The translations under genes were made by a program, and so were the position numbers. A stretch of DNA of 63,780 bases, filler included, from Collodictyon triciliatum (lineage: Eukaryota), in assembly GCA_043381765.1 (NCBI GenBank). It is 7 parts of 7 records of this genome, joined end to end, with 100 filler letters (N's around TTAATTAATTAA, not from the genome) between each part and the next. Parts side by side here need not be neighbours in the genome. Positions count along the whole stretch, not along the records: positions 35,412 to 50,016 come from JBHJMP010000311.1; 6 more parts are not named here. The stretch is one strand, 5' to 3'. The notes under the pieces were generated by a model. The model had not been told where the DNA came from. It was given only the letters and a program-made list of their open reading frames with translations, and made no database searches. Below, piece by piece: positions 38,108 through 40,501 of this stretch (its first letter is position 1; each line of letters opens with the position of its first letter).

Positions 38108-38232
38108 AGGCTGTTGGGTCTTCCCTGGCAGCCTTAATCACTACACAATCTGTATGAAAAAAAAGTGGTGAGACCTTGGATACTGGCGCACTGGGTTTAC
38201 CAATCGGAAGATTTATGTGTATATCCTTCTAG
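38108..38232 (+). ncRNA. Candidate Fanzor omegaRNA scaffold, copy 3
   Basis: AGGCTGTTGGG/CCTGGCAGCCT 11-bp stem, ATCACT/AGTGGT stem and terminal AATC-GGAA-GATT hairpin. Confidence 0.6.
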
Positions 38233-38912
38233 TAAGAAGAAAAACGATGAAATCTCCAGATATAGATTTCAATTCGAAATCATTCTCGTCCTGGAATTTG
38301 GGTCATACATACCAATGGTGGTGTATCGACTACAAACGCGTGGGACGCGACTGTCAGAAATTCGCATTAATTTCCAGAATCACTTGCGGAAGAAACCCTT
38401 TCCCTGGAGTATAAGAATCCCAGAGCCTATATAAAGTAGAGCGCACGCAGACGGATTGAATAAAATATTTCATCTGAATAGGTCGCATTCAAAGTCTACG
38501 CGCCATTAATCCCCTTAGTCAATCAAGCCTCGTGCAGCGAACGAACGAACGAACGAGCAAGCGAGCGCCCCAACAAACAAAACAAATAACAAAAAGAATA
38601 CAAGCCTTTCGCTTCTCAAGCCGAGCGAGAACCACAGAAAAAGCACAAAAAAAGAAAAAGAAAAAGAAAGGAAGAAAAAATAGAATAGAATAGAAAATAT
38701 TCGTTTGACACACGCGCATTAGTAGAGGAAAGGAAAAATGTGGGAGGGTTGGGACTCTGGATGGATATCATCGCGAGCGAACGTTACCCTCTGCAGACAC
38801 CAGGAGCTGAACTTGACAGGGGGCGCAACAAGAAACCCAGAGAAAACAAACAAGCTTGACAAGCACTAACCTCCTCCCCTCCCCCCTTTTGCTGACCACT
38901 AGAAGCCGAATC

Positions 38913-40298
38913 ATGATTGGCCGCCTGCACCCAAGCGTGGTGCTCATCGCGATAGCCGCGATGCTTGCCGGAAGCGCCCTTGCCGTTCCTCTGCAGCCTG
39001 CAAGCGGCCTCGGCAGCAATGGTGGGATTCTTTCCCTGGAGAGTCCATTCCGCACCTGCGGCGGGGACCCGAGCGGGGCCGGGCTCTGCCTTGTGCTGGA
39101 CACGGCAGCCTTCGCGTCGCTGTCGCAGGTGGAGATTGGACAAGGCGTGGAGCTGCGCCGCTTCCCACTGGGACTGAACCAGCGCGGCACGGCCCGCGTG
39201 CGCCGCTTCTCGGTGGCGGGGCCGGCAGCGTCTGACAAGGGCGCAGAGGGCGCCGTGGTTGTGCTGCTGCAAGGGGCGGTCTACGGCGAGGGCGAGGCGG
39301 TGCCTGCAGATGCGGCCGCGGCCATGGCCTTCGGGACGGAGCGGTCGCTGTTTCTGGCACTCTCGCCGCACGGGTCCAACGGCTACGCGCAGCTGCAGAG
39401 CCACACCTACGTGCTGACCACGCCGTGGGAATCCGTGGACGCGTCCAACCCGACGGTGGACGCATACGTGGCCGCCCTCCGCACCGCAGCCGCAGCCTCG
39501 CTCCCGGGCCTTGTGGCCTCCGCGTCTGCCCGCGTGTCCGTGGTCTACGACGCAACGGCCGCCGGCATCCGGCTCGACGCGATGAATCTCGCTGCCCCGC
39601 GCGCCGCCCCGGCCGGCCTCGGCGTCGGGATGCTCAACACCACAGCGCCGGCCGCAGGCACGCGCCGCGCATACGCCGTGGCTGCCGACGTGGACTACGA
39701 CATGTACCGTACCAAAGGCTACAACTACGACGCCACCGTCTCGTTCTACTACACGCTGCTGGGCTCGGCCGACGCCATCTACGCGCGCGACTTTGGGGCA
39801 AACCTGTACAGCTCGTACCTCAAGGTCTACACCTCGCCGGACCCGTACCCTTGCTGCAGCAGCGGGCAGGCGCTGGACTACATGGTGCGCACGTGGAACC
39901 CGTCCACGCCGTACCGCGCCCTGGCCACGCTGGTCTCGGCAAAGAACCTCGGCGGAGGCATCGCCTATGTGCGCGTGCTCTGCTACACGCCGTACGCCTA
40001 CGCTGTCAACGGCAACATGGTCGGCTACTTCCCGGTCCCGCTGCGCTCGTACGACTACCAGAACTGGGACATCTACGTCTTTGCCCACGAGCTCGGCCAT
40101 GTCTTTGGCGCCTCGCACACGCACGACCTCAACCCCCCCGCCGACCGCTGCGGCTCCACCCCGGGCTGCGGCCCCACCTACGGCACAATCATGTCCTACT
40201 GCCATCTCTGCCAGAACGGCCTCGGAAACATCGACCTGGTCTTCCATCAGTACACAAAGAACGAGGTCATCCCTTACATCAACGGCGTCGCCTGCTAG
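38913..40298 (+). CDS. Secreted metzincin zinc metalloprotease, M12B/reprolysin-like; intronless and very GC-rich
   Basis: Signal peptide MIGRLHPSVVLIAIAAMLAGSALA, LGGGIAYVRVLC, WDIYVFAHELGHVFGASHTH (HExxHxxGxxH) and Met-turn GTIMSYCHLC. Confidence 0.93.
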   Translation: MIGRLHPSVVLIAIAAMLAGSALAVPLQPASGLGSNGGILSLESPFRTCGGDPSGAGLCLVLDTAAFASLSQVEIGQGVELRRFPLGLNQRGTARVRRFSVAGPAASDKGAEGAVVVLLQGAVYGEGEAVPADAAAAMAFGTERSLFLALSPHGSNGYAQLQSHTYVLTTPWESVDASNPTVDAYVAALRTAAAASLPGLVASASARVSVVYDATAAGIRLDAMNLAAPRAAPAGLGVGMLNTTAPAAGTRRAYAVAADVDYDMYRTKGYNYDATVSFYYTLLGSADAIYARDFGANLYSSYLKVYTSPDPYPCCSSGQALDYMVRTWNPSTPYRALATLVSAKNLGGGIAYVRVLCYTPYAYAVNGNMVGYFPVPLRSYDYQNWDIYVFAHELGHVFGASHTHDLNPPADRCGSTPGCGPTYGTIMSYCHLCQNGLGNIDLVFHQYTKNEVIPYINGVAC

Positions 40299-40501
40299 CG
40301 CTCCATTCCGTCGCATTCCATAAAGCGCGCACAGGGTATGAGAGAAAACATCCTGCGGTCATGCCTGTTCCTCTGCTGATGGACTTTTGCTTTCTGATTC
40401 TTGTGATTTTCAAAGTGTAGTGGTTGCTGGCGATAGAGTTTGTTTGTTTGTTTGTTTTTATTATGGCTGATATTGATTATGGTGACTTGTTGAGTCCCTC
40501 T

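Follow-up and report, generated by a model that had tools for sequence, protein, structure and literature searches.

A candidate Fanzor1 ωRNA scaffold at the right end of a decayed element family in Collodictyon triciliatum

The element and its nuclease gene

The DNA analyzed here, hereafter the window, is a stretch of 63,780 nucleotides, filler included, from Collodictyon triciliatum (GCA_043381765.1). It harbors three copies of an element of approximately 2.8 kb, with copy 3 on the plus strand at 35464-38232, and copies 1 and 2 on the minus strand from 22193 to about 25060 and from 25834 to about 28700, respectively. In blastn alignments, copy 3 shows an identity of 85.0% to copy 1 (2809 columns) and of 85.1% to copy 2 (2798 columns). 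A run of N takes away the left end of copy 3, and the head-to-tail adjacency of copies 1 and 2, which are 3.65 kb apart, may partly reflect scaffolding, because another such run lies between them. These runs, at 25190-25286 and 35312-35411 around the linker TTAATTAATTAA, resemble scaffold joins. A search for further copies elsewhere, by a protein-profile scan of a collection of genome contigs, yielded 40 pattern matches and no relatives, and the use of a 17-base invariant stretch as scan query returned six matches in prokaryotic MAGs, all of them due to chance (≤10.6 bits).

The window is rich in microsatellites, with a G+C content of approximately 30-45%. Directly downstream of copy 3, a 57% G+C island carries an ORF of 461 aa that encodes M12 metallopeptidase domains of the reprolysin type (38913-40295, plus strand; E 1.7e-21), and a longer antisense ORF is found at 38784-40316, with no Pfam match. 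On the minus strand, an ORF at 18969-20117 encodes a TrAA12-like domain (E 1.3e-12), and its coding sequence includes a long repeat of the CCATCA type at 19600-19833; with the microsatellites and the G+C content, this ORF is in keeping with a eukaryotic genome. Within the element itself, a conserved region of approximately 760 nt without recognizable gene precedes the Fanzor start, and Pfam searches of the 5' frames gave no credible matches. Part of this region, at 35583-35743, ranks second in degree of structure along the element consensus (z -2.91 and -2.40).

Judging from protein homology, the element is a Fanzor1 element, each copy of which carries a full-length Fanzor1 homologue. For the last intact frame of copy 3 (37396-38157, 253 aa, P0001), a search of 1.84 billion representative proteins gave 1696 relatives at E≤1e-3, and the frame matches the solved Fanzor1 proteins PpFz1 of Parasitella (7.2e-10), SpuFz1 of Spizellomyces (1.4e-7) and GtFz1 of Guillardia (7.6e-4). 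P0002, a full-length relative of 634 aa, matches solved Fanzor1 structures with an E-value of 9.2e-37, and for P0152, an intact relative of 648 aa that is 64% identical to the copy 3 frame, the best solved match is GtFz1 (E 2.1e-28). The C-terminal TS-x-x-Zn-finger...RD motif is present in copy 3 as FRTSKMCCNC...CLICKEC...RDFNS. PF07282 was detected in copy 3 only below the Pfam cut-off (E 0.013), and a local Pfam scan of P0152 returned no family at E≤0.01, including PF26935, which is a precomputed label on relatives.

In tblastn alignments with P0002 and P0152, the whole protein is spanned in each copy, but the match is spread over several frames and interrupted by numerous in-frame stops. 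Private substitutions in the three copies number 85, 101 and 95 by codon position, and their synonymous fraction is 0.252, versus 0.251 expected from the element's own spectrum, which rules out purifying selection on the ORFs. From the stops and frameshifts, the even distribution among codon positions and the synonymous fraction, we conclude that all three genes are pseudogenes undergoing neutral decay. Since none of the three copies has kept an intact partner nuclease within the same element, all of them being interrupted by stops and frameshifts, any activity would require a Fanzor1 protein supplied from elsewhere. Copy 3 also has a lysine codon at 37882-37884 (...SVNKFRTSK...), where copies 1 and 2 and all nine aligned relatives have glutamate. 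If this position is the relocated RuvC glutamate of Fanzors, copy 3 would lack catalytic activity irrespective of its frameshifts.

Extent, fold and evolution of the right-end block

As the initial annotation had proposed, a block of approximately 121-126 nt closes all three copies of the element (Table 1). A covariance model of the three blocks recovers them at 22191-22312 (minus strand), 25832-25952 (minus strand) and 38108-38231 (plus strand) with scores of 123-134 bits, and it reveals no fourth block in the window with filters off, the next best score being 8.3 bits. The sharp loss of similarity that had been reported was confirmed by alignment and falls after a terminal CTAG in copies 1 and 3 and TTCG in copy 2, and the three flanks beyond it, which are those that had been quoted, are mutually unrelated. 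Fanzor ωRNAs have been described as coming from the 3' non-coding region at the right end of their elements and extending 14-21 nt into the flank (PMC10432273, PMC10530073). By analogy with these reports, the flank of copy 3 may have acted as a guide, and the length given to it in Table 1 is taken from this published range. A direct repeat, ATAC-N-CCTTC, flanks the structured block at 38087-38096, immediately ahead of stem 1, and at 38221-38229, among the final 12 nt of the element, and occurs at the same places in copies 1 and 2; it could be due to chance, represent a processing signal, or be a trace of block acquisition.

Table 1. Coordinates in the window of the right-end blocks, their predicted substructures in copy 3 and the associated nuclease gene
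Feature	Position	Strand	Description
Fanzor1 pseudogene, copy 3	36226..38157	+	tblastn; homology to P0002/P0152 from residue ~2 to the tail, with frameshifts and stops
Stem-loop 1	38108..38134	+	11 bp, 5-nt loop; 32/33 cells paired
Stem-loop 2	38135..38171	+	8-bp outer helix, 5-bp inner helix, A-rich internal loop; contains TGA 38155-38157
Stem-loop 3	38173..38196	+	Form of the initial annotation: 6 bp and 1-nt bulge; 18/18 cells paired
Terminal hairpin	38198..38217	+	8 bp in the consensus, GNRA-type loop (GAAA, GGAA); 87% of cells paired
Element 3' tail, copy 3, terminal CTAG	38218..38232	+	End of inter-copy similarity (alignment)
Copy-specific flank of copy 3, putative guide	38233..38252	+	Flanks dissimilar in alignments
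Block, copy 1	22193..22312	-	Covariance model 133.7 bits; putative guide from 22192 downward
Block, copy 2, end TTCG	25834..25952	-	Covariance model 133.2 bits; putative guide from 25833 downward

The block had been regarded as non-coding and situated after the ORF, a description that holds for most of its length but not for its 5' third, which is probably coding. The frame of copy 3 is open for 16 codons into the block, up to a TGA that is common to all three copies, and stem-loop 1 thus lies inside this frame, as the codons for QAVGSSLAA. The tail of the intact relative P0152 (...KKQAVGYSSTAL...) is similar to that of copy 3 (...KKQAVGSSLAAL...), and their C-terminal ends read ...KKQAVGYSSTALTVTHKRMRM and ...KKQAVGSSLAALITTQSV, respectively. 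The open frame and the similar tail suggest that the ancestor likely read approximately 16 codons into the block, so that its first ~48 nt were probably coding, the reading likely ended after stem 1 and half of stem 2, and the shared TGA is the probable ancestral stop codon. At the position of the copy 3 CAG codon (38107-38109), copies 1 and 2 have TAG. The A-run that precedes the block, at 38101-38106 in copy 3, differs by -1 and +2 nt in the other copies, which throws the ORF out of frame right at its entry into stem 1. Of 152 stored relatives, 124 carry the RD.N motif, and across these the tail that follows the RP..F.R motif is variable.

The majority consensus of the three blocks folds with an energy of -42.8 kcal/mol (z -3.85), and none of 300 shuffled sequences did as well. 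The individual blocks have energies of -37.3, -34.6 and -32.8 kcal/mol and z-scores that are modest relative to shuffles (-2.12, -1.90 and -1.24), and copy 3 alone, over 38108-38255, gives -38.1 kcal/mol (z -2.09). Along the element consensus, the segment corresponding to 38074-38195 has both the lowest energy (-40.4, the next being -30.2) and the lowest z-score (-4.39) of 67 windows, for which the mean z is -0.24 (sd 1.3). That the consensus folds better than the single copies and is extreme among these windows indicates an ancestral structure, localized at this end, that has since deteriorated in every copy. All stems quoted in the initial annotation are present; nevertheless, only the majority consensus shows perfect forms of stem 2, of its inner stem and of the terminal hairpin, and each copy has mismatches. 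With the consensus structure, pairing is kept in 97 of 107 cells, or in 104 of 113 with stem 3 as initially drawn. The corresponding values are 87.5% and 86.7% for the outer and inner helices of stem-loop 2. An alternative for stem-loop 3, a 4-bp hairpin CUGG/CCAG within the loop, pairs in 11 of 12 cells. The terminal hairpin of copy 3 is the most damaged, and that of copy 2 is kept by a double change from C-G to G-U (pair 98-103).

The claim that stem 1 forms in full only on the sense strand proved correct, because it contains U-G and G-U pairs that are fixed in all three copies; in the minus-strand consensus it shrinks from 11 bp to 6+2 bp. The minus-strand consensus nevertheless folds well too, with a z-score of -3.25. 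The suggested pseudoknot between positions 10-15 and 63-68 is compatible with the three sequences (17 of 18 cells paired), but it shows no covariation, and for four of its six pairs it draws on bases already engaged in stems 1 and 2. An alternative one, between the loop of stem 1 and the terminal loop (12-16 with 100-104), pairs in 13 of 15 cells and includes one double change from U-A to C-G in copy 3, which 160 of 500 shuffles equal. Neither pseudoknot is established. A search of the whole window against Rfam 15 gave no match at the gathering score, and between 37800 and 38400 the sole match at E≤10 was a chance one (E 9.3).

The block is present in all three copies, as had been reported, but it is no better conserved than the ORF. 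Pairwise identity in the last 100-column window is 73-80%, versus mostly 0.80-0.92 in windows of the ORF body, and the substitution rate of the block reaches 9.4% for paired columns and 8.3% for unpaired ones, versus 6.1% in the ORF body. Covariation over the three copies amounts to a single double change among 36-38 pairs, that of the terminal hairpin of copy 2, and this count was equalled by 131 and 176 of 500 shuffles with the consensus structure and with stem 3 as initially drawn, respectively; with only three sequences, the test has no power and is uninformative. Among changed stem cells, 13 of 20 keep their pair on the plus strand, where the spectrum of the element itself, which is strand-symmetric with 463 substitutions and a ts/tv of 1.4, predicts a fraction of 0.30 (binomial P 0.0013). 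On the minus strand, the count is 5 of 20. In a control set of 62 ORF-body windows, with pairs taken from minimum free energy folds, 220 of 629 changed cells keep their pair (0.35). The block under its own minimum free energy fold keeps 16 of 24. Of the control windows, 54 have eight changes or more, and only one of these surpasses the block. The excess of pair-keeping changes in the stems is suggestive, with small numbers. Since the substitution rate of the block is not reduced, it corresponds to a surplus of wobble-making transitions rather than to fewer disruptive changes. Three such transitions lie within 5 nt of each other in copy 1. RIP-type mutation as a cause of the wobble changes was rejected in view of the ts/tv ratio of 1.4, the strand-symmetric spectrum of the ORF body and the weak CpA bias.

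Known guide RNAs and competing explanations

Published Fz1 ωRNAs are 75-150 nt long, have two to four stem-loops and are variable between the first stem-loop and the guide (PMC11423790). With its size and four hairpins, the block falls within this range, and it lies on the sense strand between the ORF end and the right end of the element in all three copies. The same layout, with a scaffold followed by a guide from the variable flank, has been described for the ωRNA of SpuFz1 from Spizellomyces punctatus (PMC10432273), whose protein is homologous to that encoded by the ORF in the window. However, the SpuFz1 scaffold is reported to have 75 nt and two stems, to lie wholly past the stop codon and to span a 30-nt terminal inverted repeat (PMC10432273), whereas the block comprises approximately 125 nt and four hairpins, overlaps the ORF by approximately 16 codons and belongs to an element with no detectable inverted repeat of this kind. 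In size, hairpin count and ORF overlap, the block most closely resembles the ωRNA of GtFz1 from Guillardia theta, for which 150 nt, four stem-loops and a 17-codon overlap have been reported (PMC10432273, PMC11423790), a likeness of architecture. The host lineages differ, as do the first stems: the first stem-loop of the three solved Fz1 ωRNAs, including that of GtFz1, has 7 bp (PMC11423790), whereas stem 1 of the block has 11 bp, and stem 3 alone comes near this value, with 6 bp plus a bulge.

Similarly, the fRNA of CrFNuc-1, encoded by a Helitron2 element of Chlamydomonas, is a Fanzor1 RNA located at a conserved 3' UTR at the element end (PMC10530073, PMC3627910). Helitron2 ends have, according to the same sources, asymmetric inverted repeats and two hairpins, whereas the element described here has only a Helitron1-like 3' end, with a hairpin, CTAG and T. 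The ωRNAs or reRNAs of TnpB proteins, in the IS200/IS605 and IS607 families, also consist of a right-end scaffold that overlaps the nuclease ORF and is followed by a flank-derived guide (PMC10711439). In the TnpB-type pseudoknot of Yoon et al., 5 nt beside the guide pair with the loop of the first stem-loop (PMC10711439). This pairing is impossible in the block, where the guide-adjacent UCUAG mismatches the loop of stem 1 and the two candidate partners lie elsewhere.

The element ends bear on the question of whether the hairpins, and the terminal palindrome in particular, are rather cis signals for transposition at the DNA level, in the style of a Helitron 3' terminus recognized by a rolling-circle or single-strand transposase, with no guide-RNA role. 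In Helitron1-type 3' termini, a subterminal hairpin lies ~10-12 nt from a CTRR end, and insertion takes place before T. The right end has such a hairpin, followed after 12 nt by CTAG; the consensus palindrome ends 12-15 nt short of the element end, CTAG in two of the three copies conforms to CTRR (copy 2 has TTCG), and the next base is T in all three. There are no detectable terminal inverted repeats (best scores of 14-15 versus shuffle means of 13-16), the minus-strand consensus folds well too, as noted above, and Fanzor1 proteins have been described in Helitron-type elements (PMC3627910, PMC10530073). Against this, the Helitron1 5' signature was not found, because the similarity between copies 1 and 2 passes upstream of the sole candidate 5'-TC and, in copy 1, G rather than A precedes it. 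Moreover, there are four hairpins instead of one, stem 1 relies on sense-strand G-U pairs, and the terminal loops are of the GNRA type. The terminal hairpin with CTAG|T might just as well act in transposition as a signal in the DNA, but this role and that of a guide RNA are compatible and not mutually exclusive: the right-end hairpin of IS200/IS605 serves both. A DNA signal devoid of any guide-RNA role appears unlikely. The two readable left ends, ...AATAAA|GGG and ...AATAAT|GGG, are too few to call a TAM. A (TAA)n microsatellite at 25061-25189 adjoins the left end of copy 1, and the left flank of copy 2 ends with AATAAT; these flanks may point to a target site or TAM rich in A+T.

A structured 3' UTR or mRNA-end element, acting on stability, termination or translation without being bound as a guide, the flanks being plain insertion sites, would occupy the same position on the same strand and overlap the stop codon just as the block does. 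Yet at all Fanzor loci examined in PMC10432273, which number 20 and come from ten organisms, and in PMC10530073, the RNA arising at this place was bound by the nuclease and reached into the flank, and an element of the 3' UTR type is an unlikely alternative. If the block had no function at all, its inverted repeats would be there by chance and its fold would be inflated by consensus building. The modest z-scores of the single copies (-1.2 to -2.1), the null result of covariation and the fact that the structure was partly picked after the data had been seen all agree with this idea. Nevertheless, the same consensus procedure gave a mean z near zero over the 67 windows, among which the block is extreme, and the surplus of pair-keeping changes exceeds that of the control windows. 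An absence of function is regarded as very improbable.

A candidate ωRNA and its possible fate

On the basis of its position, of protein homology and of thermodynamics, the block is probably the DNA for a Fanzor1 ωRNA scaffold, also called fRNA or reRNA, now a relic of a dead family. The earlier reading of the block as a scaffold and of the flanks as guides stands with respect to Fanzor1 homology, position, strand, boundary and fold, but it has to accommodate three dead nuclease genes and a 5' third that is probably coding. Expression and processing of this candidate ωRNA, its binding by protein and its use of a guide are matters that we only infer. In an active ancestor, transcription of the Fanzor gene would have continued through the right end into the flank, and the last ~125 nt of the element would have formed four hairpins, with the last ~16 codons extending over the first of them and half of the second. 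The Fanzor1 nuclease would then have bound this four-hairpin scaffold, and the next ~15-20 nt of flanking RNA would have provided a copy-specific guide for cleavage at a matching, TAM-adjacent site, such as the empty donor site.

Beyond their loci of origin, Fanzor ωRNAs have been reported to occur as orphan copies (PMC10432273, PMC10530073), including orphan 'ghost' copies without ORF for Spu-1 (PMC10432273) and additional copies of the CrFNuc-1 fRNA in the Chlamydomonas genome (PMC10530073, PMC3627910). In the element described here, the ORFs have evolved neutrally, yet the changes in the stems are skewed toward sense-strand pairing, and the copies may therefore be orphan ωRNA genes under selection. 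The right-end RNA genes would in this case outlive the nuclease genes, each with its own guide, and rely on an intact Fanzor1 that is encoded at another genomic locus and acts in trans. Such copies would resemble the ghost Spu-1 elements, but they would have arisen by decay of the ORF. This scenario seems unlikely.

As it stands, the candidate scaffold is what one would expect to find in a decayed transposon family, and it leaves current views unchanged. The subfamily includes an intact relative of 648 aa, P0152, which is a candidate for tests as a compact editor. If confirmed, the block would add one more design to the few characterized Fanzor1 ωRNAs, with approximately 125 nt, four hairpins and an overlap with the ORF tail, and the element would offer a natural case in which to ask whether guide-RNA genes stay useful once the nuclease gene is dead.
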